A DNA stretch of 64,000 bases, from positions 434,001-498,000 of the forward strand of contig CT868052.1 in the NCBI GenBank assembly GCA_000165425.1, written 5' to 3'. Positions 1 to 51,945 of the stretch are shown here, piece after piece. A program made the position numbers and the translations under genes. A model generated the notes under the pieces. The model searched no databases. It saw only the letters and a program-made list of their open reading frames with translations, and was not told the origin of the DNA. Position 1 is the stretch's first letter. Each line of letters starts with the position of its first letter. The stretch comes from Paramecium tetraurelia (taxonomy: Eukaryota).

Positions 1-13
1 ATAATTATATTAG

Positions 14-221
14 ATATAGATTAGAAGAATCAACTTTGAAAGAAGTGAGAGATAGAATTGAAAGAGTGAAAGAGTCAGAATTGAAGAACGTTGAAAAGAG
101 AAAAGACTTGAGAAAGAATTTGAGAAGATACTTGGCTGAGAAATACAGAACATTACCAGCAGGAAGTTTGGCTGATAAGAAGGCATAATCAAGATTCCTA
201 TTTTCAAAATTGAGGTTCTGA
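14..221 (+). CDS. RPL27: 60S ribosomal protein L27 (eL27), last exon; gene starts before the window
   Basis: After an acceptor TAG at 11-13 the frame reads YRLEESTLKEVRDRIERVKES...KYRTLPAGSLADKKAQSRFLFSKLRF*. The C-terminal F-x-KLRF is the eL27 signature. TGA at 219-221. Confidence 0.85.
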
Positions 222-308
222 TTTATTACATAAGTATAATTGCATTAAGAAATGTATTTAGTATAAATTGTCTTGTTTATAATGTTCTTAAATGAGGGTA
301 ATTATATA

Positions 309-1547
309 TCATTATTGTTACTATTGCTTTAATTTTCTTTGGGTTCTAGTGAAATAAAACTTGGCCTTCTCTTCTTGAGTTTAGAAACGTCCTAATAAAA
401 TAGAATTGAGATAATACCATGTCCAATTTTGGATGATGTATCAACAAATTTGAGAGTGATTTCTTCCAAAGCCTTTCTGCTAGTTTATGGAACAAGAGAC
501 TTTCTCAACAAGACGACTCTCTTCTTGGGTCCAACAATACCTCCCTTGAGCATGAGGAAATCGTTTCTGATTTCACCATAGTGTGGGAAACCACCCAATG
601 GAGTGATTGCCTTTGAAGTCAAATCGGCTTCGGTAGATGCAGTGTTCTTATCTCCAGCAGCACCAATTCTGTAGATCTTCTTGTTCATTTCAGTTCTGTG
701 ATGGTAACCCAATTGACCAGTTCTGGCAACACTGTATCTGACATTGGCTGGATGCCATCCTCCGATACAACCAACTCTTCTCCAACCTCTATGGGTCTTC
801 TTTTGTAAATGCTTAACACCAAATCTCTTGATGACACCAGCAACTCCCTTACCCTTGGTGACACCGAGAACGTCAATTTATTCGTTTTATTTGAAGACTT
901 AATCTACTTTGACTTCCTTTTCTAATAATCCCTTGGCATAGTTAACTTTTTATTCTGTTGTGCCTCCATTGACTTGAACTTCAAAGACGTGATTCTTCTT
1001 TTATCTCAAGTTCAATTTGCTCATTTGAGTGTGAACAATGACTCTGACAACTTAGCAATATCTAAAGAGTTTAATTAATATTTTTACTTAACGATTCTCT
1101 TTAATTGAGTTTCCAAATTCTTTGGCTCAGCATTAGCCTTGTTATAATTGGTGAAAGCCTTCTTCTTTGAGTTGATCCAATTCTTATAGAATCTTCTCAA
1201 TGTGTCCTTGGCAATTTTAGTACTCCAAACAGTGGTCAAAGCTCTTAATCCTCTTGGTGTTTCGATATATCCAACAATACCGACGACAGCCAAAGGTGGG
1301 GTTTCAACGATGGTGACGGCTTCAACAACTTCCTTTCCATTCAATTTTGATCCTGGTCTTTCAACAGTTCTCAAGATGTGGGTCATACCAGCCTTGAATC
1401 CTGCAAAGGCTGTCAAGTGAACTGGAGATGATTTGTTGTCTTTTAAAGGGAGAAGTCTCGGATTCTTCCTCTGTGATGCTTTGTTCTCTTTCTTGGTGTA
1501 AATCCAAGATTTCCATGTCTGGGTGCCTCAAACTTTCTGTGGGACAT
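309..1547 (-). CDS. RPL3: 60S ribosomal protein L3 (uL3)
   Basis: [21 protein letters not shown]... [44 protein letters not shown]. Two tiny introns (~392-417, ~1062-1087). Apparent frame break at ~1441-1460. Confidence 0.97.
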
Positions 1548-14716: not shown

Positions 14717-17700
14717 TCATTAAATTCTGCCTATGTAATCATCTAAGCTTATGAATTCAGCTTCGATAATTTCCTCCAGGGATTATGGACTGACTTCCAC
14801 TCTTTATTGATTTATATCAATTAAATGTTAGCATAAATACAATGCTTGTTATCTTAATTTAGATTCAAACTCCTATAATAATATAAAACATTTATTACTT
14901 GTACTTCTTAGACATCTTTAATCTTTACTAAACGCTTTTTCTTTAATAAGTTCTGTTGATATTAATCTGGATATAATGTATTTTCATAATCAACATTGTA
15001 ATTGGCTGTGATTGGAAATTGATAAGCCATGTAAGGTATAAATTTATATGGAGTTGTAATTTTTACTTTTTATTATTATTATTACTATTCCACTTACTAA
15101 AAGTTGATTGTTATACCGAAATCTAATGTTATTATAAAATATTACAATCAAATACAAATATCCATTCATAAAAATAGAATTCTTCAAGTTGAAACAATGA
15201 GAAAAGTTCAATAAGCTTTAAACCTGAGATCAACAAATATGGATTAGCTTACTTTCCCTTTCTATCAAAAATTTAGATTAACATACTAATTAAATAAGGC
15301 CATATTTTGCGAAAGACTTAAGTTAATGAAGATTAACTTAATCTTAAAACTAAGATTCTAATGCAAAAAATAATTAATATTGTTATTGCTTCATGCTGTT
15401 GATTAATATCCTTAATAACTGTTAAAATTGCATCTAACAAACTAGACAATTTGGATTAGTATTTATCTACACCTCCTGAATAGATTATAAAGCAAACTCT
15501 TTCGAATCCTTTTGTTTTCTTTAGTATCTCTGCTGATTTGCTCTAAAACAACCCAGTAAATCCTTAAAGGATCTTTGAATTATTTCCTAATTGATCTGTT
15601 AACAAATCTGTTTTGTCTGATATTATGTCAATGATTTCAGTCCAGAATTTTAGGCATCTTCCTGTGCACTTGAAAAACTCTTATTTATTGAAAATATTTA
15701 AAATATCATTTAAGAATATTTAGGATAGTTAGTCTTTTGAAAGTTTGAGTATAGAATGCAGTAATTCTGAGGCTGATTCCACTATAATCTAATTTTCTCT
15801 ATCTTCAAATAACGGGAATATTAATGCCATAAATTCTTTAGTATTTTCAACTATTCTTTCACCTCTTGATACTTCATAAGTGTTTATTAAAGTCACCTAT
15901 GATAATCTTTTTAATGTTTTTAAGGCAATAATTGAACATTTTTTAGAGAAATCTTGTTGTTCTAATTTCAAACCTTTCTATTGATATGGATCAAATAAAT
16001 TTCTTTATATAAAACATTCATTCCACCCTTCCTCTGTTTTCTCAACATCTTTTTATCTTAATTGATAATACTCAGTATAGAGTTCAAATATAGTCGGAGT
16101 GAAAGGAACAATAAGTTATAAGTTTTGATCAAATTAAGATTAACTAAAGTTCTCAAGGGAAGAAGATGTAAATGTCACATATTGATATTGCATAGAGGCT
16201 ATTTCAGCCAAAATTACCAAAATCTATCTTAATTGTGTATGCAACTCCTTTCTGAATTCTTCCAAGACATCTTTTGGAGAGAATTTCCATGACATTAGAT
16301 GAATGATCTCCAATAAAAAACATATTGTATTAATGTGTCTAGATTATAAGAGGGATTTTGAAAATTATAGAAAACCATTCCACAATCTAATCAATTCTCT
16401 GTTTTTGAGATTTTAAAATAAAACTGATGAAAAATAAGTATATAAAAAGAATAAAATTCCATTCTCAAAAGTTGCTTGATCATAATTGAATTGATATGGT
16501 CCCTTTTTATATTTATTTTTTTAGTAATACTAAATTATTCCCTGAACCTATTGTGTATTAATGAAAGCAGCAATAAAATCATCTGGGGATATTTGTAGAG
16601 TTATTGCGATTTCAATTAGCTTACACATATTTAAATTAATCTTAGGATCAGCATAGAAATTGACTGAGTATTCATTTTACCAAATTAATAAAAAGGATTA
16701 AATTAATGTAGTCGTAAAATGAGTGGAACAAGGTTTCAATAATTATAAAATTGATTACTAAATTTAGTCTTCGTCTGAATAATCTTCTTCTTGCTTAAAT
16801 AGTTAATCTTTGAGTTATTTATTAAATTAATCGAATTTATCATATTCATAAATGAAACAACCTTTGGTAAAAAGATGATCCCATTTTAATGAGCATCTCC
16901 AACATTCCAAATAGGATTATATAATTTATGGAAAATATTTCAAGAGCATCTAGCAAGTATCAGGGAAGTTTTCAAATTATAATTACTCTTGTTATTTTTT
17001 TAATTTTAATGTTTTATCAGCTTTTTTGAAAAAAAGATTTAGTGTAAATAAATCTACTAAAACACCTGCTGCATTTGGTCTCTAATCAATTTCTTTAGAA
17101 TCATATTTGAATTAGAAAAAATAACAAATTATTGCTCTTATAGAATTAGATAATGACATTACTTCTTCAAAATCATCTCCGGACAATGTAGTTTTGATTG
17201 AAGGTTGCTCATTATTTAATTATTATATATTAACTTATTAGAAATTATTATTATATTATTCTTATTTCTGATTCTTTAATATCTTCACATTTGAAACACG
17301 TCTAAATGATTTGACTATTTGGCTATTATTATATTCGCATAATTTTAGTAATGCTAACAAAGATGTAAGTATCAATATAATTTTTTCATTTATTATCTTC
17401 GGAGGCAATAAATAACTGATAGAATAAATACCAACAACAATAGTATTTAAATATCTTTATTTGAGATAGTAAACTTTAGCTAATTTTAATCCATTTACCA
17501 GATTATCAAAAAAGAGTTGTTAATCATAGATATCAATCAGTTTTACTTTATTTTCAGATGACAAATCTTTTTATAACTCATATGTATGGAGCAAGAAAAC
17601 TTTAACCAGATTTAACAGTTGTAATTGTAATACTTGATCTTTACTTTTTATAACTTAATCAAACTTGTTTAAGATGGTATTGAAATATTAGATCAAAATT

Positions 17701-20437
17701 TAGGTCTTACTCTTTTCATTTATTGTATTATTAATAACAATTTCTAAAAGCTCTGCACTTATTGCATTGATTTTTGTATATTCATTATTTTAAAAATCAG
17801 CCACTATAAATTGAATTAGAGTCAAACATATTAATTTGTAGTACGTATTGATATTTTCATCTTCATAAAATGTTGGTCTAGTTTTTTCAATATATGGTTA
17901 AAACCATTCTTTCGACGAATATAAGGATTGTAATTTCTTGATTGAATCAACTGCTAAATCAAGAGAAAATTCATTCTTTTTTTCAATATCTTTTTAAAAA
18001 TTGATTAATCTTAACATAATAGGATCCAATATTCTAAAAAAGAAAGGAGCCGATTCAGATAACCATGTTTTTGTATTATATCTAATCAAAGGATTTTCAT
18101 GTTCCAAAAAGTTTAACATTTGAATGATTCCAACTCCAGTATTTTTATTTGGATGTCTTTTGTAATAAGTATTTGTTATTCTGCAATATATCTAAAATCT
18201 CCTTTAATCCCCTTATTTTAAAGATGATTCTATCACATAAACAAAAACATGTTGAAAATTTTCAGTTATATACAGAAGAAATTCGACAATCATTTAATCA
18301 TGATAATTTTAATCTAAAAGTATCCACAATTTTTCAAAGATTTACTTTATATAATTATGTTAATTATTATTATTCTAATGATGATTCTATGTTTAATCCA
18401 TACATAGGGATAAAATATTTGGAAACGGTTCTAAATCTTAATAGCTGTGTTTAGTTATCATATCAGTTAGTGATTGTATATTTTAATGAAGTGAAGCTGA
18501 CTTAAGTAGTTCTATTAAAATTTAAATGGAATATAAATTTATTTTATTTGTTCCTTAATCCAAAGATTTAAAGAGTTATTTAATCCAACTAGGTATTTCT
18601 TAGTATTAATAATTTCCTTGTTTCATTAAATATAATTATGATCTCAATAAAATTAGGGATAAAATTGGAAATAATGTTTCTTATTCATTGTTAATTGAGT
18701 ATTCATTAATTTAAATGTAATAATTGCAATACTAAGAGATGATATCAATGTCAATTTGATTTAATTGCACTAATATTGAATTTTTGGATGGTTCTACCTA
18801 TTTATTGTAATTGCTTCCCAAAACTGCCTATAACTCTTTATCATTTTCTAAAATTTCTAATCTCTTTCTTATTTTATTAATGCAATCCACGGTTTATTCC
18901 AATAACAATTAGGATATTGAAGTTTCAAACACTTATTCACAAGTCAAATTCATCAACTCTTTTATTATTATAATAATAAATTCTTGTAAACATTCAGTTC
19001 TTTATTAAAACAATTATAGATCTTCAATTTTTGATAAATCTGAAAATTATTATATCATTAAATTATTAAGACAAAAGTCAAAAATTAGAATACATTCCTT
19101 AATCTAATCTTGCTTTTAATCTTTCATATGTTTATTTAATTGTTCAAATAGGGATTTTATGATTAATTCACTATGACTGGATATGCTCTCAATAAGTCTC
19201 TCCCCTCCTTTCAATAACTCTACAAGTTTTTCATTTTAATTCCCATTTTTGTATTGGACAGTCTTATGATAAATGTATTTAGCTAGAGAATATCCAATTT
19301 AAAATAGAGTTAATTGAACAGTTTCTGGATGTTGCATATACCAATTTTATAGCACTTTCAGGGGATCCCCTTATTCTTCAATTAATATTCTTTTTAATCC
19401 TTCCTAGATATAAAGGATATTGGGATTGTTTTCAGAGAGCTCTTCTTCTCCAATTAACCAATTGTTTATTCTTCTTATGACTGCATGATCTTATTTTTAA
19501 AATAAAAGCAAGGCTTATTCAATCAGTATTAATTGTTCTTGTTATGAAAAGACTTTATCTTAAATTTTGCAATGCAAAGTCATAAAATCTAAGGCTGCCC
19601 TTTTTACTAGTGAAGATTCATCATCCAAAGATGCCAAAAGAGCATTAATAACCAAAGCACTTTTATTTGGCATCTTATCGTCTTCTTTTAATTCATTTTC
19701 ATTTAATTCAATTTATTATTATCTTGTCCATCTCTTCATTAGATATTTATATGCTCCTAACCTACTTCTAACTGATCTAATTATTGTTATCCAAAGTAAT
19801 CCAAAAAATTGTTTTACTCCTACGCTTTCACATGCTTAATCAAGAGAAGACATTACCTAGTGTCTATATAGAAATTACCTTTTTCATCATCTCCTCGTTT
19901 GTATCCTCCATACCAACAATTATGGAATTTATCAAGCCTCCCATACATGGTAATAATTCTCTCTTTAAGGGATAGTAATATTTTTCAAGAATGCTTAAAA
20001 ACATAGGCTTACATTAAATGGATGCAAACCCAAAGAATGGAAATAGACCAAGGGAAAATAATGGCAAATCTTATATTAGATCATACTCTGAATCTGAACA
20101 TAGTATTTGCAATATCAAATCATAAAGAGTAAGTGCATTTTCATGAATAGCTTTATTCCAAATAGGACTTAAACATTGTGCTAACCTTTTGCATAATAAT
20201 TTTTTCTTTGGGATATAGGTGCCTTAATATGATTTAAAAATTGCTTGTAACTTAAGTAACCACTAAAAATAAATTGTGATGAACTACCTATCCTAAATCT
20301 GACCATTCTTTTAGAGATTCATAGCTTTTTAATATCGCAACGATCTTGGATTTTTACTTCGTTTGATCTTCAGTCTTCACCTTTATAACAGCTTAACTTT
20401 CTGAGTTTCTGTTTTGATGTTTTTGATCATTAAACAT
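14717..20437 (-). CDS. DOP1: Dopey/DOP1 family large trafficking scaffold
   Basis: N-terminal YESLKEWSDL...IPKKKLLCKRLAQCLSP...IHENALTLYDLI and later VRSRLGAYKYL and LDDESSLVKRAALDF match the Dopey N-terminal domain; ~5.7 kb gene. Confidence 0.85.
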
Positions 20438-26577: not shown

Positions 26578-28991
26578 ATGGATTAGCTTGATATTGATTC
26601 ATCGAAGTTTGATTGCCAAAAATATGTGAGTGAATTCTTAAAGAATCATAGTGTTTAAGATCTAATACAAAGACATAATTAATTGTAATCAGAAATCAAA
26701 GAATATGATTAAGATATATAATCACTAGTATTTGAAAATTATAGGTACTTGATCAAATTAGTTGTAGCAAATTCATATCCTCAATTGATACCGTCAAGAA
26801 AATGAAAACTGACATTACCCAAATTGATTAAAAGGTAGAGACTTTGGCACAATCCATGACCAAAATAGCCTAATTGTCAAGAAGAATAGATTCCTAATTG
26901 TCAATTAAAAGAGAAGAAATCATCAAACTGGATACTGTCAATAAGGATTTGAGTCGTCTTAATTCGGTTTGCAATTTTTCCACACATAATCCAAAAAGAA
27001 TTAGATCAATATAAATCTAGTAAAGGAAAGAATTATGATGAATATTTTAATGAGACTGCTTAGTATTATAAGCAATGTTATTCCACTTTGGATCAATACA
27101 AAAATGAACCACTTATTTAACCAATTTATAAAGAAACCAATTAGAAATTAGACAATGCAAGATAAATCCTTTGGAGTTCCCTAATTGAATTCAAATAATA
27201 AAATCCACTTTTATAATTGTATTCCGAATCTAAAGTGTCAATTTCAACTCAAGAAGCCAGATCAGCAGTCAAGAAGTTAATACAAATAATGGATGATGAA
27301 GAAGCTGTACTGAGACATTATTAGAAGATAATCAAAGAAAGATATTTGACTGTAGCAAAGGAGTTGATAGATAAAGCAGCCATTACTAAATCTTCTGAAG
27401 TTGTGAATCTGATGGACTACCTTGAAGAAAAGAGATATGACTATACCGTTGAAGAATTAGAGGAATACAAATAAATGAAAGAAAAAGAAATTGTCAATTC
27501 TGATTCTGCCATTTAAGGTTCCATTTTATGGTTAATCAATCAATTATGTTAAATTATATTTAAAGAGTTGAAAGTGGAAGTCTCCTTTTTATTGATTGAA
27601 ATTAGAGGAACCCTTAGGGATAAATCATTAGAATAACTCTCAACTCAATGCATCAAAGAGATCATTCATGGAGTATTCTAAGGTGTTACTGATAAGATGA
27701 GTTAGAAGAAGATTAATAATGTTTAAGTTAACGAAGTCTTTGTTAAGTTACAAACTGAACTCCAATCATTATTCGAAAACAATTCAATTAGACAATAATT
27801 AAGGACTGAAATCATCGATAAATTTACAGAAAATGTTGAGAATATTTGTAGAGGATAAGTTTTTACATCATTTAGTCATTTAAGGGTGCAATTTTTAGAA
27901 TTGCTTGTGTTTGCTAAAAATGATTTATAACGCCTGTAACCTACTGATGAAATAAAACGAGAGATCATGACTCTCATTACTGTCATCAAATAAAAATTGA
28001 TCGCATTCACAACTATACGTTTATTAGATCTTAAAGCCTTTGTATTTTCTTAATAATAAAGTTATCTGAGAGAATAAGAGACTTATTTGAATCTAATTTA
28101 AGCCTCTCTAATAGAGTTTGTTAAATTTGTGGGTAAGATATTTGCCTTTAGATCCATTTCCATCTCCCAAGAGCAATTAAACTAATTGTTTAATGATAAT
28201 TATATTATTTAGCAAGTCTTGCCATTATTAAACACTAATGATTCAACATATTACTATTTGTTTTCAAACTAATTTTTATAGTTGTACTCAAAAACATTGA
28301 GTAACAAATTATTTGAACTTGTTAGTTAGGTCTTCTAAGGGTATAAAAGTAAATTATATAATTTATTTATCAAGTCCGACAACCAACTGATTAAGAATTG
28401 AATAAACTCAAAACCTATATCAATGGATCTACTTAAAAGAACTTGATGTTGTTTGCACAAGCCTAGAGCGAACATTGGATCAATATCATCTTTTAATATC
28501 TCAATCAAGAAAATGTTGTGTACTAACAACAAACTACATAAAAGATTTTATTTAATGAGGTCAAGAATTTTATAGAAGCTCTAGGTCTTCTATTTCCTGA
28601 TACAAAAAGAGGACTTGTCAAGAAAGTATCCATCATATAATAAAGCACTTTCAATATTTAAATGGAAATAGTCATGGTGAGAAAGTGCAAGATATTAGAA
28701 ACCAATATTAATGACAGAAATAGTTTACTTATAACAGTCGTAAAGTATGTTTTGAAAGTATTATTACAAAAAGTAAGAGGAACCTATTTCTCAGAAGACT
28801 TATTTAAATAATTTTAGGTAGATTTATATTTTGTTATGCAATTATTTTATGATATGGTTTCTGTTGATGAAGAAGGATTAATAGCAGGATTTTATATGGA
28901 AATTTTAGATTGTGCTGGCAAAAACTGTAAAAATGATGTTAAAATCGATCCAAAAATATTAGAAAATTTGTCATTATAGGCTAGGATGTGA
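26578..28991 (+). CDS. VPS51: Vps51 (GARP/EARP tethering subunit)-like protein
   Basis: LDIDSSKFDCQKY...EIKEYDQDIQSLVFENYSKFISSIDTVKKMK matches the Vps51/Vps67 N-terminal domain. One-base frame break at ~26975. Confidence 0.8.
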
Positions 28992-29052
28992 TATTTATTG
29001 AATTATTTTATTTAATATGAGTAATCAATTGAAGAATATTAAATAAAATTAA

Positions 29053-30203
29053 TCAAAAGAAAAATGACTCTTCCTTTTAGATTAGATAAACACTCGTAAT
29101 TGATTTGTAAACTCTTTCAACTTCAGTATAATTTGCCTTCTTAGCTGTTAGACAGATTGACCTTATTTTATCTTTAAGTAAGAATAATGGTTCTTCATTC
29201 TGTATTAATATTTATTAGTTGATTCCTGGGGCTTAGAGAAACAAAATTTAGCATGCTTGTAGAAATGGTAACGATTCGTTAAGAATGGAATTTACCTTCT
29301 CTTAATGTTTCTTTTCTTAGGCCCTTCTTATTTGAGATCCAATAGATTTGATATTAGATCCAGAATGCGAATCCTTGGTTAGTTATCGACCTCCTGCCTT
29401 TCCTCTTACAACATATCGATGATCACTTTTATGATAAATGCAACCTGTATTATCAAAAACTCCTAAACAAAAATAACCACCATGGCATAAGATAATAGCA
29501 AATTTTTAAACTTAATCTAATTGGTTTAAATTTGGTTCTTATTATTATTTTTATTTGATGACCTTTTACTTATTCTAATTAACTCTCTCCAGTATTTCCT
29601 TTTGTCTACTTAATATACTTTGCATATCATCTAATTGATAATTAGCAAATTCTGATGATTAGGCTATCTTTTCTAATATTTCTTTGGAACAATCTTCATT
29701 TATTTCTGAGAATTCGTAATTCAATCCTTAGTCAATCAATGATCTATTTATTACGATGTAGTTCTCATTATATTTAAAGGCTTTATTATCTTGTGTGCTT
29801 AACTTACACTCTTCTGGAAGAATGGCGTTGATATTAATGGATTGCCAGTTGAGACTAAGAAATTCTCTTGGAAGATCTTTGAGTTAAATCTTGATAACTT
29901 AAACACCTAGTTCTTTAATTTTTATATCCATATTTTTGGGTACTTTATATAAGTCCTTGGGAAGCACAGGAATTGTTTTTTTTCTAAAATTATAAATTTC
30001 CTTTAGACTCTAAACAGAATATAGAAATAATAAATTACATTTATAAAGTGAACTAATCTTTATTCTAAATACTTTTTCAAAACGAAATTTAATTGATGTT
30101 TGAAATACTTATTACAACTACTCAAATTAGCTAAGTCTTTTGAATTTAGATTTGAGATTATGGTTTTACTTATTTCTGGTTAGTTGAAAAGGTTTATGAT
30201 CAT
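29053..30203 (-). CDS. F-box-like N-terminus fused to a VLRF1 (Vms1/ANKZF1-type) peptidyl-tRNA release domain
   Basis: N-term LFNQPEISKTIISNLNSKDLANLSSCNKYF; C-term FAIILCHGGYFCLGVF...HKSDHRYVVRGKAGGRQLTKD...SIGSQIRRAQE...LFLQAPG...IRSI...KANYTEVERVY. One intron; continuous frame. Confidence 0.85.
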
Positions 30204-30421
30204 TATTAAATATTAAATTTTTAATTAAAATATCTAAGAAATATATTAATTTAGTTGATTAAGATGTGTTCAGATGCGATATAATATTATTGTTAATCTA
30301 TAGATAGAGGATTTAATTAGAGATATCAAAAAAGAAATATATTAATATTAAAAGCAAGATCTTTAAATAATCATAATAAATTATACTTAATTTTTAGATT
30401 TACTTGAATGTAAAGAAATAG

Positions 30422-32942: not shown

Positions 32943-34251
32943 TCATAATGATAAATCACTCTTTATTAATTTGAACAGACTTGAAGTTTCCCCTATATTT
33001 GAAAATTCTATTGAAAATGCTTAAAGCTATATGATAAGCACAATTAAATTACTTCTGTGACTAAGTCTGAGGTCTTATAGAGTTTCTTGTTAATCAAATG
33101 CTTCAGAAATATGGTAAAATACTTAATCATTCTCACTTGTTAGCCTTTTTCCTATATATTAATAAATAGATAATACTTTGATGTTCTAGCAAAATTGAAT
33201 ACAGTAGTTAATATAATAATTTAAATACTCCTAGGGGATATGAAATTATTAAACGATCATGCACATCATTTCTAAACCATTAGGAGTTACATCAATTTAA
33301 ACTAAGTTATCCATTAGTCTATAATAATTTTAAATGAATACTCTAGAAATTCTGGATTAGGAAAGTATTTAGAAAACAAAAAAAATGCCAAATTTAAGTT
33401 TTTCTCAATTATTTCCCCTAGATTGAAATTAATCAAACCGTTATTCTTCAAAAAATTGTAATTGTCTTTCTTTAGATATTCTTAAAATAACTAGAATTTA
33501 AAATTTTGTTACTTGCAATTCATATTCTGAGATCTATTCATTATGTGCCTTCTAGATTATTTCTTTAATTTGACTCAATTTATCAGAGTTTATTTGCAAT
33601 GAATAATCCCAAATCGCATAAGACATATCATTTAAATCAATCCAATCAAATCTATTTGAGACCACATTTGGAATAGGTCGAAGATACTCAATTTCAAATC
33701 CATTTTGTTATTGTATGATATCATTATTAGAGTTTTGTCTTAATTTTCTAAATATTAGAGAAATATTTACTAGGGTGGATTATTATTATTTAAAGAAATA
33801 CAATTTCTCATTTTATTCTGAGCAATTTAACTTTATGAATAGTCTTTGGAGATTGGCCTATCATTAGATGTAAATTTATCTTATTCTTCAAGCAAGGTCT
33901 TCATTGTAATGCCAGCATACTATCTTAAATGTCTTAATAAAATCGTATACAATTTGAGGGTCTTAAATAAACTTTCTCTCAAAATCGTTTAATGTAAAGT
34001 TGTAAATGTCTTATAGACATGATTTCAATTCCGAATTGTACAGCAAATAGATAGTGAGCAGTCTTAATCCTTTTGTGAATATCTATTTTTATTTAGATTC
34101 TTACATTATCACATAATCCTTAATAAAAATAAGGATATGGATTAGGTTCTGATTCAAACTTCTTAATGAACGTCCTCTATATATTGTCTAATGTCCCAGT
34201 TGCTTCCAACAAATACCTATTGATTGATTCTACTTCTGATTAGGAAATCAT
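32943..34251 (-). CDS. CNOT11: CCR4-NOT subunit CNOT11-like
   Basis: FEIEYLRPIP...W...WD and C-terminal IPQEYLNYYINYCIQFCQNIKEKGQQVRMIKYFTIFL...ELQAFSIEFSNIGETSSLFKLIK match the CNOT11 conserved domain. Confidence 0.82.
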
Positions 34252-39769: not shown

Positions 39770-41825
<2,056 letters not shown>

Positions 41826-41896
41826 TTACTATTTTTGTATTATTTATATTAATTATATTATATAAGAATAGTTGATAAATTTAATCATTTACATCT

Positions 41897-43156
41897 TCAG
41901 AAAGATTTAAAAGGGTTTTTAAATTTAGGTAGTGCAAGTTCATATATTCTTAAGAAATATAATGTATTATTACTATTAATTAATGCTGTCATGATGAGAA
42001 TTCTTCATTTCAGATAATTTAGTAAAATAGGGGTGGATCAAACATTTTTCAACGGAAGGTCTTTGGCCTGCATCTTTCAGCATTTGAATTATAATATCAT
42101 ACAACAAAGGACATTTCAGATTATCACTTATGACGTATTGATTTTTTTTATTAAGTTCACAAATTTCTTTGGGGGCCAATTTTGATGAATAAATGCGTTT
42201 TCCGGTAGCCAAGATGTGTATGACAGCCCCTAAACTATAAATGTCACATAATTCATTATAAGGAACTGATTATTAATATATTTCTGGAGCTACATAGCCA
42301 GGAGTACCGCACCTGAATTCCATATTCTTATTGTCTGAGATAAATGTTGCAAAGCCAAAGTCTATTAGTTTTAATGATTTTATGTCTCCTTTGGTTTTAA
42401 ACATAATATTATCTAATTTGATGTCTCTATGCAAAATATTAAGTGAGTGTAAATGCTTTAGAGCCTTTAACAGTTGTTTGAATATCGTTTTAATTTCTGA
42501 ATCGTCTAATTTGAGATGCTTTTGTTGCATGAATTCATATAGAGTACCTCCAGCCATATACTCATATATAAATATTGAAGTATCCTTCTCAGTAATTATT
42601 TCCAACAATTTCATTAATTTTGTATGTGGATATTTTTTTAAGGTTTTGTTCACTTTAATTTCACTATTGATTTCCGACTAAAATACCTAAAATATTTTTA
42701 CATTCTGAGACTATAAGCATATTTTAGCCACCACATATTCTTTATTGAATATATTTCTGCATTATACAATCTAATATTAATTTAAACAAGTTACTTGACA
42801 TTATTTGTTTTCTTTTAAAATCTTGATTATTTCATATTTTTCGTGAAATACTTGAGCTGTTGTTTATATAAGTTAGGTTTGCGTTGTTAAATTAAAAAAT
42901 GAAACCCCAGATGAATTTTATTTAGATTACTTATTACTCCTTGCCAAATACTATAATTCAAATTAGTCAACTGGTATTGTACTAGGCTTAAGGATAAATA
43001 ATACTTTAATGTAGCTTGTAATGGGCTTTAGGAAAACTACTCTCCCTTCAATTCGTGTAGTTTAGAATTCGTATTCGATTTTTTTCTTTCAGTTTTCTTA
43101 AGTATCGAGTTTTAGAACCCAGAATCGAAAAATGCAATTGATTCTCTTCTTTTCAT
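41897..43156 (-). CDS. Ser/Thr protein kinase (CAMK-like)
   Basis: VVAK, HRDIKLDN, DFG, CGTPGYVAPE, DIYSLG; glycine loop degenerate. Confidence 0.9.
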
Positions 43157-45259: not shown

Positions 45260-46714
<1,455 letters not shown>

Positions 46715-48239
46715 ATTAGCAAATTATTATTTAATATATAATTGCCGTAGTGTTTATTACAAATAAATGTATTTTAATTGAAAAATTAGATATTTTCAAA
46801 TGCTTAGTATTAATAATCGTAAATAAAATCTTTAAATTGTTTTTTAGTAAAAGATTATCCTTCTATTAAAATTGTATTGTAACTTTCTCTAAACGATAAT
46901 ATTACTGGGGAGCATAGAATTTATATATAGTATTTTTTCAAGTAAGGTTTCTTGTTTTTTTAGCAAGTGTAAATTTTTAAACATAAATAATAATAATGGT
47001 CGCTTTAGGATGTCTTTCCAAAATAATAGATTGTAATCTTAGATAATGATATCCAATTGATGTTTAAATTTCTTTTATGTTTTCTTTGTATTCATAATTA
47101 ACTAACTCTCAAGTTTTATTTGATTCTCAATTCATTCTAAAAACATACTGTTGATATTAGTTTAACGATGTAATATTCAATTAACATTCCTAATCTACTC
47201 AGAACTATAAAATGATTTTTTTAAATAAAAAAGTAAATTAGAATTATTCATAATAAGAATGAAATTTAGAATATATTATAATCAAAAATGAATACTCAAA
47301 TTTTTTATTATCAAAGACACTTTTGTTTTTGTGAGTATTTATAAGATAAGATAATGTGAGGATTATTTAACAAATATTATAATAATCAAAATTGTTAATA
47401 AAACAGGAAGGTTAAACTCAAAAATGAATGCAATCGAAAATTTAAGTTTTAATTGAATATTTCTCTATAAACAATATATACTCATTAGATAAGAATATCT
47501 ACTTTAATTAAATAAAAAGTTATTCTAATCCAAAGTGAGATTAAGAAGAGAATTTTCATTTATAATTCTATAAATATATTATGACATTTATTAACAAAAT
47601 AAACTCATTTATAATGAAGAATTAAAATAATCAAGAAAGCAAAGACTAATCCAAAAAGCTCTGATCTTCCTATATTGGTAAGATAGTTTATTACTATTTA
47701 GAAAGAGTACTTTTGAATTAAGTATCTAATTAAATGTCAATCACTACCGCAATAACGATATTGATCATCTTATCATTTTAAGAATATGGATTTCAATTAA
47801 AAAGTTTTCTCTTAATTTAAAAAATGCAGTTGATTGCATAGTTTGTAAAATTAAAAATTTATAATTAACTAAAAATAAATTAGTTAAACTCTTTATATAT
47901 AGATGTTCTTTAGAAAATCCATAACTTAAAATCAACAACCTATTGCTTTTTAAGAAAATAAAATTAAATTATAATTTGAATTCGCAAATCTGAAACTTTT
48001 ATTCAAGAATTATATAATAAATTAAAGTAAATTTTGATTTTATTAGTTATTGTTTATATCTATTCACTATCTATGTAAATTAAATTTATAATTATGACTT
48101 TTTCATTATAGTAAGGAACTTAAAAAATACTTATTTTAATATTCTTATGACAATTTAGTTTAGTATCTAGAATATAGCATTAAATTACGAAAAAGAAAAT
48201 TATATTTTAAATTTTTATATTAACATATAATTTTATAGT

Positions 48240-49604
48240 ATGTAATAAATAGATGAAATTTAACAAAAGCCATTCACTAGAATAGCTTTGGTAGGAAGTA
48301 CAAGATGCGGTAAAACGACTTTATTGGGAGTGCTAACAAAGGGAATGAGTGATGATGGAAAAGGATCAATAAGAAACATTATGGTTAATTATTCTCATGA
48401 AGTTAAAAAGGGAGGGCAAACAGAATCTGTTGTGTTTGAGCTGATTGGATTTGATAAAGAGGGTAAGTAGATTTTATCAAATGAATTACCAACAAACAAA
48501 GGACAATATTAAAGTCAAGTATTCTAATAATCAAACTCATATTCATACCTAATCGATACATGCGGAGATACCAAATATTTTAAGCATTCATTATCAGCGA
48601 TCAATAAATGCTTGTTTAATCTCTTAATAATTGTGATAGCTGCTGATGAAGGTATTACGAGAATCACTGTAGAGTGTTTATTGATATGCCAATTGTATAA
48701 GATACCCTTTATTATTGTCTTAACCAAATGTGACTTAATTTAGAGTAAGGAGGATAAGGAAAAAGTAATATTTAAAATTCATAATTAAATCAGCAATAAT
48801 TTTTTATATAGAAAATTGGTTATAGCAAAGGATCCCAAAGAATGCGCTAATCTGATGAATCTTAGACTCAAAAAATGTGACAATTAGAAAGGGATGATCT
48901 GTCCACTTTTTGAAGTAAATAATATTAATCGGGATGGGATTGAACTTCTATTATAATTTTTGTTCCATTTTTAAAATCAGGATCATCTACATTCTGAAAT
49001 CAAATCTGCAGAACAACCATTTATGATGGATGTATTTTATACTTGCAATGTCAAAACTATAGGGGAAATCCCATTTGGATTAGTAAAATCTGGAACTGTC
49101 AAGTTGGATTAAATAGTTTCTGTTGGATTGGATGAAAACAAGTAGATACAATGTGCAAAAGTGATTTCTATTTAGAATATCAGAACTTCTCTTAATTAAG
49201 CAAGATCTGGGGAATTGATATGCCTAATATTATAGCCAATAGCTTAATAAATTATTGACTTTTCTAAAATCAAAATAATAGCTGACCCAAAGATCAACAT
49301 TCCATATGTAAAGTCATTCTGGGCAAATATTAGCATGCTTCCTGGTCCAACTACTGTAACAATTGGATTTAAACCAATCTTAGAACTCTCTAATATTACA
49401 TTGCAAGTAAACTTATAAGAAATAATTGGAGAAACTTAATTTCTCAAAAGTGGAGATTGTGCATTGGTCAAACTTCAATTTTTAGATGAAACCTATCAAC
49501 CTGTTTATGAAAATTAGCAATTTATACTAAGAAGCAGTCACTCTATTGCTTATGGATAAGTAGTTAATGTTTCATAATCAGATTTAATAAATGATGAATA
49601 ATGA
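48240..49604 (+). CDS. GTPBP1/GTPBP2-like translational GTPase (divergent)
   Basis: RIALVGSTRCGKTTLLGVLTKGMSDDGKGSIR...HEVKKGGQTES...LIGFD...LIDTCGD...VLTKCD, followed by EF-Tu-like beta-barrel domains. Confidence 0.85.
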
Positions 49605-49874: not shown

Positions 49875-50544
49875 ATGAAATTTTTGGTTGCTCTAATACT
49901 TCTATTGTCTTCGGTTAGCTAATGCGAGAAATTAAAAGTGTCTGCTTATAGTAATACAAATATAATACATTTTAGTTGAATCACTTTGTCCTGACACAAC
50001 CAGATTCATTTAGTCATCATTATTAAAGGCATTATAAACACCATAATTTGAAGAGTTAGTTGAATTAAGACTAGTTCCATATGGGAAGGCTTCCTAGGTG
50101 TTATAAAATGACAGTAAGATAGTATTTCAGTGTTAACATGGTGATCTAGAATGCTTTGGCAATAAAATTTAAGCATGTGGTTTTGATGCTTTAAATGCAT
50201 CTTAATAAGAGTAAATAAACTTTTTGACTTGCATTCAAAAGTCTAGGAAACGACAACAAGAAGATTTCGAGAATGAAATCAGATAATGTTTACCAGATTT
50301 ATGGGAAGGCGTTTTGGAATGTGCAAAAGGAACTGAAGGAGTAAAATTATTATGGACTAATGGAGAAGAAACATTAAATTTAGATCCTAAATTAACCTAC
50401 GTTCCATGGGTAACAGTGGATGGTAAGTTTGACTCAAAGGCTCATGAATAAATAGAAAGAAATATTGTAAAGTGGGCTTGTTAGATTGCAAATAAATAAA
50501 AAGATAATTATACATAAATAGAAGCATGTGAAGAATATTAATGA
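49875..50544 (+). CDS. GILT-like lysosomal thiol reductase
   Basis: Signal peptide; ESLCPDT, LVPYGKA, FQCQHGDLECFGNKIQAC, YVPWV. Confidence 0.9.
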
Positions 50545-50568
50545 ATAATTAAGATGAATATTATAATG

Positions 50569-51945
<1,377 letters not shown>

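Follow-up and report, generated by a model that had tools for sequence, protein, structure and literature searches.

Yeast and mammals are the systems in which ribosome-associated quality control (RQC) has been worked out; there, Listerin ubiquitylates and release by Vms1 (yeast) or ANKZF1 (human) is tied to Cdc48/p97 via a motif termed VIM. The VLRF1 domain of these factors acts in the A site of the stalled 60S subunit, where it severs peptidyl-tRNA, and the order of RQC keeps Vms1/ANKZF1 restrained until the nascent chain has been ubiquitylated. The canonical proteins, which reach 600-900 aa, further contain a Rei1-like C2H2 finger, ankyrin repeats, a VATC/VTC treble clef and the Cdc48/p97-binding VIM. 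As described in a passage of a review, ANKZF1 cuts off the 3'-CCA and leaves a 2',3'-cyclic phosphate (PMC7026593). Burroughs and Aravind (2019, Int J Mol Sci 20:1981, PMC6514570, section 2.2 and Figure 3H) defined the eVLRF-1 family and reported that the eVLRF-1 of Naegleria and of some ciliates carries an F-box; their passages on this layout amount to one sentence and a figure and hold no functional discussion of the F-box. Here we describe such a gene from Paramecium tetraurelia, situated on the minus strand at positions 29053-30203 of a 64,000-nucleotide stretch of contig CT868052.1 (positions 434,001 to 498,000, hereafter the window).

We conclude that this gene probably encodes a ciliate eVLRF-1 (Vms1/ANKZF1-type) release factor of the RQC system, equipped with a divergent F-box that putatively docks on Skp1. 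As a ciliate representative it belongs to a class that has been described before, and the original prediction for this locus, which held the architecture to be undescribed, is refuted on this point, on one of the grounds that it had itself named, by the report of Naegleria and ciliate forms in PMC6514570. To the passages of that paper the present analysis adds transcript evidence, fold matches, a predicted Skp1 complex and an extension of the class to Blepharisma and Colponema.

A spliced two-exon gene read in the ciliate code

The region is AT-rich (about 27% G+C) and open only under the ciliate code. Translation recovers the gene where it had originally been placed, with both of the peptide strings then quoted: the F-box-like string LFNQPEISKTIISNLNSKDLANLSSCNKYF in exon 1 and the catalytic-loop string RYVVRGKAGGRQ in exon 2. 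In place of the single frame of about 370 residues proposed at that time, there are two exons separated by a 29-nt intron (30038-30010) that shifts the frame between them. The parts of the gene are as follows.

29053-30203, minus strand: whole gene, two exons, one intron, TGA stop
30039..30203, minus strand: exon 1, 55 codons, ATG at 30203, encoding the F-box-like domain (from sequence and translation)
30010..30038, minus strand: intron of 29 nt, GTA...TAG (from sequence; the same 29 letters are missing from the contig)
29056..30009, minus strand: exon 2, 318 codons (from translation)
29053..29055, minus strand: TGA stop codon (from sequence)
29023..30225, minus strand: assembled mRNA-like contig of 1174 nt, holding the whole gene without the intron

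The joined translations of the two exons are identical, letter for letter, to the 373-aa protein GSPATT00006844001 (CAK67537.1), which carries the source annotation 'VLRF1 domain-containing protein' (P. tetraurelia). At 90% identity it falls into a cluster of seven proteins, all 373 aa long, that spans six species of Paramecium; one member, GSPATT00002384001, is a second copy from P. tetraurelia.

Transcription was examined by aligning four runs to positions 28900-30400, one as assembled contigs and three as raw oligo-dT RNA-seq reads. The 1174-nt minus-strand contig extends from 22 nt 5' of the ATG to the end of a 30-nt 3' trailer and omits exactly the 29 letters at 30010. The RNA nature of the run that yielded it is a guess by the tool; we take the contig as a transcript because the intron is missing from it and its ends coincide with the borders of the gene. 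Strand-specific oligo-dT RNA depth covers 29053-29990 in all three raw-read runs, of which 33-42% each was read, and in these no depth was seen beyond about 29990, leaving exon 1 and the junction uncovered, a picture that fits the 3' bias of partly read oligo-dT runs. The exon junction thus rests on one assembled contig together with the orthologues. The gene is expressed, spliced and composed of two exons, and exon 1 belongs to the same transcript as exon 2, a point singled out for checking when the locus was first noticed.

At its 3' end (29023) the contig of the VLRF1 gene overlaps by about 26 nt the plus-strand contig of the convergent upstream neighbour, which runs to 29048, such that the interval 29023-29048 holds the 3' ends of two convergent mRNA-like contigs. 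A few reads of the opposite orientation lie over 29104-29256, in the 3' part of the VLRF1 gene, in run X21 (depth 0.8-2.8); the other two stranded RNA runs have none there.

The VLRF1 core and the N-terminal F-box-like module

The protein divides into a C-terminal VLRF1 domain, a middle region with a conserved strand motif and an N-terminal helical module:

29077..29499, minus strand: VLRF1 domain, residues 226-366 (Pfam PF18826, E 2.4e-39 in the full protein)
29383..29418, minus strand: catalytic loop RYVVRGKAGGRQ, residues 253-264 (from translation and alignment)
29857..29898, minus strand: residues 93-106 (VIKIQLKDLPREFL), a conserved strand-plus-turn motif of the N-terminal extension (from the alignment consensus)
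30069..30191, minus strand: F-box-like core, residues 5-45, with predicted helices at 9-18, 21-30 and 32 onward (from Pfam, profile and model)

The identity of the C-terminal domain is clear from several directions. The bVLRF1 model of Pfam (PF18826) is matched with E 1.6e-39 and 135.6 bits against a cut-off of 27, and likewise matches all 21 family members scanned. The original prediction of an intact glutamine loop holds: the catalytic Gln264 (Q209 of exon 2) is encoded by TAA at 29385-29383, and Y254, R257, G261 and Q264 do not vary across the 45 aligned sequences. A sequence search of the PDB at E <=1 returned only three matches, all of them yeast Vms1 constructs (E 3.7e-9 to 7.1e-9), among them chains 5whg and 6r84 at E of about 4e-9; in the resulting alignment the Vms1 loop ...RRKQGGSQ pairs with ...RGKAGGRQ of the Paramecium protein. 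When a whole-protein AlphaFold2 model built on 45 sequences (predicted local distance difference test score, pLDDT, 75.5) was compared with known structures using Foldseek, four matches were obtained at E <=0.001, all to Vms1 (6r84_R, 6r87_R, 5whg and 6r86_R), with the Vms1-60S complex 6r84_R best at E 5.7e-9 and eRF1 middle domains next after Vms1 in the list. Thus, the C-terminal half is predicted to adopt the release-factor (eRF1 middle-domain-like) fold found in Vms1, and profile and catalytic loop together place the protein, as judged from sequence, in the eVLRF-1 or Vms1-ANKZF1 family.

In the Foldseek comparison the alignments to Vms1 extend over 246-324 columns, exceeding the 141-residue Pfam domain and taking in the strand motif at residues 93-106. 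This motif has the family consensus ..FDL.., appears as LKDLP in the Paramecium protein and includes a model strand at residues 91-97; it may correspond to the N-terminal segment of Vms1. The Paramecium protein lacks the additional parts of canonical Vms1/ANKZF1: Rei1-type zinc finger, ankyrin repeats, VATC and VIM. Pfam searches returned no match to a zinc finger, ankyrin, VATC or any further family (E <=10 for the exon pieces, E <=1 for the full protein), and a pattern search found no C2H2 or VIM-like match, in agreement with what had been noted at the outset. With the same tool, 36 of 40 longer representatives (488-944 aa) gave a match to VATC, to Ank or to both. Residues 56-225 contain two cysteines and no histidine, and the VLRF1 domain ends seven residues before the C-terminus at residue 373.

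A 789-aa representative from outside the window (P0171) combines VLRF1 with a C-terminal RanBP-type zinc ribbon and AZUL and is without Ank or VATC. AZUL is the N-terminal zinc-binding domain of the ubiquitin ligase E3A, and by its domain composition this protein appears to be another link between VLRF1 and modules of the ubiquitin system.

The evidence on the N-terminus is of a different grade. Pfam places an F-box at residues 10-37 of exon 1 alone with E 6.5e-4 and 20.0 bits, just below the cut-off of 20.5; in the full protein the score is 16.8 bits. Across the 21 family members scanned, F-box is the second commonest Pfam family after VLRF1 (7 of 21 at E <=1, best 9.8e-4) and always lies N-terminally, with F-box-like matched in 4 of the 21. 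Among 26 further representatives there are F-box matches in four and an F-box-like match in one (E <=0.1), and three of 30 other relatives have an F-box match. One of these three, P0182 (344 aa, metagenomic, from a eukaryote rich in G+C), scores above threshold for both F-box (31.3 bits) and F-box-like (29.8 bits), and its layout, with the F-box at residues 62-97 followed by a ..FELP.. strand and then VLRF1, is that of the Paramecium protein. A profile of 15 N-termini run against all PDB sequences retrieved the F-box of FBXO22 first (E 0.0038) and that of FBXO4 fourth and fifth (E 0.14), with a ribosomal protein ranked between.

Structural comparisons point the same way. The model of residues 1-55 (pLDDT 81) consists of helices at 9-18, 21-30 and 32-54, that is, the three-helix arrangement of the F-box fold. 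Foldseek returned only three rows for it, all of them F-box chains (FBXO4 twice and KDM2B), at non-significant E of 6.6-8.8. VIA-align against 48,161 chains gave one match with Z >=5, to FBXO42 (Z 5.8, root-mean-square deviation 3.2, 54 residues aligned), and 17 of its 50 listed rows are F-box or SCF (Skp1-cullin-F-box) entries by title; the Z values are low in absolute terms. Residues 1-55 are conserved in the seven Paramecium copies, at 84-96% identity to GSPATT00006844001.

A stand-in Skp1 for complex prediction was obtained by searching contigs from metagenomes for a Skp1 motif, written as a degenerate pattern. The sequence chosen, a 158-aa open reading frame (ORF) in the standard code (L082:1-474), has both Skp1 Pfam domains (E 3.1e-28 and 1.5e-24). 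With residues 1-70 of GSPATT00006844001 the predicted complex scored 0.90 in three of three runs, as compared to 0.47 for the best control; on a calibration set, the mark used for such scores was passed by 51 of 78 solved complexes versus 2 of 108 mismatched pairs. At least 96% of contacts agree between runs, the partner has a pLDDT of at least 86, and the predicted interface joins residues 96-156 of Skp1 to residues 1-35 of the F-box protein. The model thus supports a putative docking of the F-box-like N-terminus on Skp1.

A further metagenome contig of 35% G+C (L026:95-580, plus strand) bears an intronless Skp1 gene with both Skp1 Pfam domains (E 8.5e-28 and 6.2e-26). It is open only if TAA and TAG are read as Gln and ends in TGA, and is apparently in the ciliate code; it was not used in the complex prediction.

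Several observations weigh against an F-box that binds Skp1. No member of the ciliate family attains the Pfam gathering score for F-box, and at the E-values used 14 of 21, 21 of 26 and 27 of 30 relatives in the three sets have no F-box match. Typical F-boxes start with Leu-Pro; Paramecium has Gln-Pro at this site, and Leu-Pro is missing from most orthologues, including that of Tetrahymena. The fold matches are low in Z (5.8 at most) or have non-significant Foldseek E-values, which is to be expected for a helical piece of 55 residues, but such values are also frequent by chance. An hhalign comparison of the N-terminal profile with the P0182 F-box is in register but weak (E 0.018, probability 2.5%), and with the full family alignment the VLRF1 domain alone was aligned. 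The Skp1 in the predicted complex derives from a metagenome contig and not from Paramecium, own family alignments were not used, and, because many Skp1-F-box complexes have been solved, the high score may reflect likeness only. Nevertheless, these several weak lines of evidence, from profiles, fold and predicted complex, agree, and we therefore read the N-terminal three-helix module as a divergent F-box. In this respect the initial assignment of an F-box-like N-terminus is supported.

Phyletic spread and possible coupling of release to ubiquitylation

The same layout of 320-440 aa occurs in Tetrahymena thermophila (TTHERM_00085060, 383 aa), Blepharisma stoltei and Colponema vietnamica, each with a homologous N-terminus within one protein, so the fusion is conserved in ciliate and colponemid orthologues, of which the original prediction had proposed a survey among ciliates. 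Word-indexed and exhaustive searches also recovered it in about 24 clusters at 50% identity, mostly of metagenomic proteins. Three word-indexed searches covering 174-2000 aa yielded no canonical VLRF1 protein in addition to the ciliate-type form, in either Paramecium or Tetrahymena, which is weak evidence: the search at 205-653 aa returned only the ciliate-type family, and that at 654-2000 aa with the VLRF1 region gave no longer form among 137 candidates, again counting only weakly against a canonical ciliate ANKZF1.

An IQ-TREE phylogeny was computed from 81 VLRF1 domains, picked from 176 sequences as those whose match covers at least 125 positions of the domain model. It splits 27 ciliate-type rows and one short row from the other 53 (support 100/99). 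Another branch (97/90) has 28 VATC- or Ank-bearing rows and four short rows on one side, with the ciliate form outside this canonical cluster, as are colponemid rows, a row of the heterolobosean Acrasis kona, two metagenomic rows with a Pfam F-box and euglenozoan rows. Neither the bearers of an F-box nor these last-named rows form one group, and, the tree being without an outgroup, the direction of change (F-box form ancestral or not) is not readable from it.

By analogy with Vms1 of yeast and ANKZF1 of human, the Paramecium protein would insert its VLRF1 domain into the A site when a 60S subunit has stalled and sever the peptidyl-tRNA there, so that the nascent chain is freed and the 3'-CCA removed. 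The F-box N-terminus, on its part, may dock on the C-terminal helices of Skp1 and so make the factor part of an SCF-type cullin-RING ligase or, at the minimum, of a Skp1 complex. Release would thereby be coupled either to ubiquitylation on the stalled 60S subunit or to regulation of how much of the factor is present. Given the predicted complex, such SCF coupling of the release factor is plausible. A bolder proposal, which we offer tentatively and consider less likely to be right than wrong, is that in ciliates and colponemids the VLRF1 factor is itself an SCF substrate receptor that replaces the VIM-Cdc48 link. One small protein would then recognize the stalled 60S-peptidyl-tRNA, recruit Cul1-Rbx1 for ubiquitylation of the nascent chain or of the 60S subunit, and subsequently cut the tRNA. 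Since F-box forms (ciliate, colponemid, heterolobosean and others) lie outside the single canonical cluster in the tree, the F-box form could even be the older eukaryotic state.

The principal competing explanation is that the N-terminal helices are a relic or structural extension with no Skp1 binding and that the protein is a minimal stand-alone release factor comparable to the bacterial bVLRF-1 core. The helices would then serve folding, autoinhibition or ribosome contact, and the passage on kinetoplastid eVLRF-1 in Burroughs and Aravind (2019, PMC6514570) offers a parallel in an N-terminal domain that is alpha-helical and is not an F-box. The sub-threshold Pfam scores throughout the ciliate family, the poorly conserved Leu-Pro signature and the fact that short helical pieces give weak fold matches by nature would all sit well with it. 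However, F-box is a recurring weak match and no other family recurs at the N-terminus; the best PDB profile matches and the best fold match are F-boxes aligned over their F-box segments; P0182, a relative of the same layout, has an above-threshold F-box; the predicted Skp1 complex beats its controls with the expected interface; and the N-terminus is conserved across the Paramecium species as well as in the two copies of P. tetraurelia. We accordingly regard a relic as unlikely, though a serious contender. A different objection accepts Skp1 binding and denies the complex any action on stalled ribosomes: the F-box might serve auto-ubiquitylation that sets the abundance of the factor, or a Skp1 complex of the non-SCF kind that some yeast F-box proteins form. 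The predicted docking is shared by this explanation, the ligase has no link to a substrate in this analysis, and Vms1/ANKZF1 must in any case be held back until the nascent chain is ubiquitylated. On the other hand, in canonical F-box proteins the domain after the F-box is the substrate-binding module, and here that module would be the 60S-binding VLRF1 domain; we deem an F-box complex with no action on stalled ribosomes quite improbable.

Least credible is that the fusion is an artefact of the gene model, with exon 1 deriving from another transcript or the true start lying in exon 2. It could draw on the raw oligo-dT reads of three runs, which stop at about 29990, short of exon 1 and the junction, but with about a third of each run read this is what 3' bias would give. 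One contig joins the exons with the intron precisely removed and starts 22 nt upstream of the ATG, all seven proteins of the Paramecium cluster have 373 aa and the same N-terminus, and the Tetrahymena, Blepharisma and Colponema orthologues keep that N-terminus in one protein. This explanation is close to refuted. The balance of these considerations leaves a release factor with a divergent, putatively Skp1-docking F-box as the probable account of the gene.

Genomic surroundings and comparison with known systems

A Pfam scan of 40 ORFs across the 64-kb window found no Skp1 or cullin among them. The genes of the window are ordinary and unrelated: PX, histidine phosphatase, CNOT11, Dopey, three kinases, EF-Tu-type GTPase, Vps4-like AAA ATPase, copine, L3 and PCO_ADO. 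Those for which positions were recorded are:

2-1126, minus strand: ribosomal protein L3 (E 3.2e-93)
14868-19883, minus strand: Dopey-family protein, Dopey_N and DOP1_C (Pfam)
32946-33404, minus strand: CNOT11 fragment (Pfam)
39829-41991, plus strand: protein-kinase-domain ORF (Pkinase, E 8.6e-59)
41943-43088, minus strand: protein-kinase-domain ORF (Pkinase, E 4.7e-49)
45263-46501, minus strand: protein-kinase-domain ORF (Pkinase, E 5.4e-42)
47994-49601, plus strand: EF-Tu-type GTPase-domain ORF (E 8.4e-16)
50445-51557, minus strand: AAA ATPase with a Vps4 C-terminal domain, adjoining the GTPase ORF (E 4.9e-34)

The three kinase ORFs fall within 7 kb. The GTPase and AAA ATPase ORFs are, by position, unrelated to the VLRF1 gene.

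A literature search found no mention of TTHERM_00085060, GSPATT00006844001 or GSPATT00002384001, and PMC6514570 was the sole publication it turned up that names both VLRF1 and F-box; in the titles or passages retrieved on ribosome-associated quality control, Skp1 and Vms1, none concerned an F-box of Vms1. With the architecture in print and the protein annotated as VLRF1-domain-containing, the locus adds little novelty in itself. Its interest lies in the other wiring of RQC that a release factor with an F-box suggests, in which the release factor itself would bring a cullin-RING ligase to the stalled 60S subunit, and in the tractability of Paramecium and Tetrahymena by RNA interference and gene replacement.

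The closest described system is the F-box plus eVLRF-1 class itself. As the passages in PMC6514570 present it, that class belongs to the same family and has the same layout as the Paramecium gene, with the F-box N-terminal to a bVLRF-1-like core and with Rei1-ZnF, ankyrin, VTC and VIM all missing, and we see no architectural difference between the two. Bacterial bVLRF-1 (PF18826) provides the best-matching Pfam model and has the same core and N-terminal extension; its members stand alone according to the relevant passage of PMC6514570, whereas the Paramecium protein is eukaryotic, spliced and provided with an F-box.

The canonical SCF F-box proteins (for example FBXO22, FBXO4, FBXO42 and Skp2) share the three-helix N-terminal module, FBXO22, FBXO4 and FBXO42 being among the best profile or fold matches, and an interface of their usual kind with Skp1 is predicted for the Paramecium protein too. 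They differ from it in usually having a WD40, LRR or other customary substrate domain, where the Paramecium protein has a release-factor fold behind an F-box that is below the Pfam threshold. With yeast Vms1 and human ANKZF1 (5whg, 6r84, 6r86 and 6r87) it has in common a homologous VLRF1 domain and the catalytic Gln loop, and by analogy the same biochemical role on the stalled 60S subunit is expected of it. At 373 aa it is far shorter than the canonical representatives, whose finger, ankyrin repeats, treble clef and VIM it lacks altogether, carrying an F-box instead; and while the canonical VIM links release to Cdc48/p97, this F-box would link it to Skp1.

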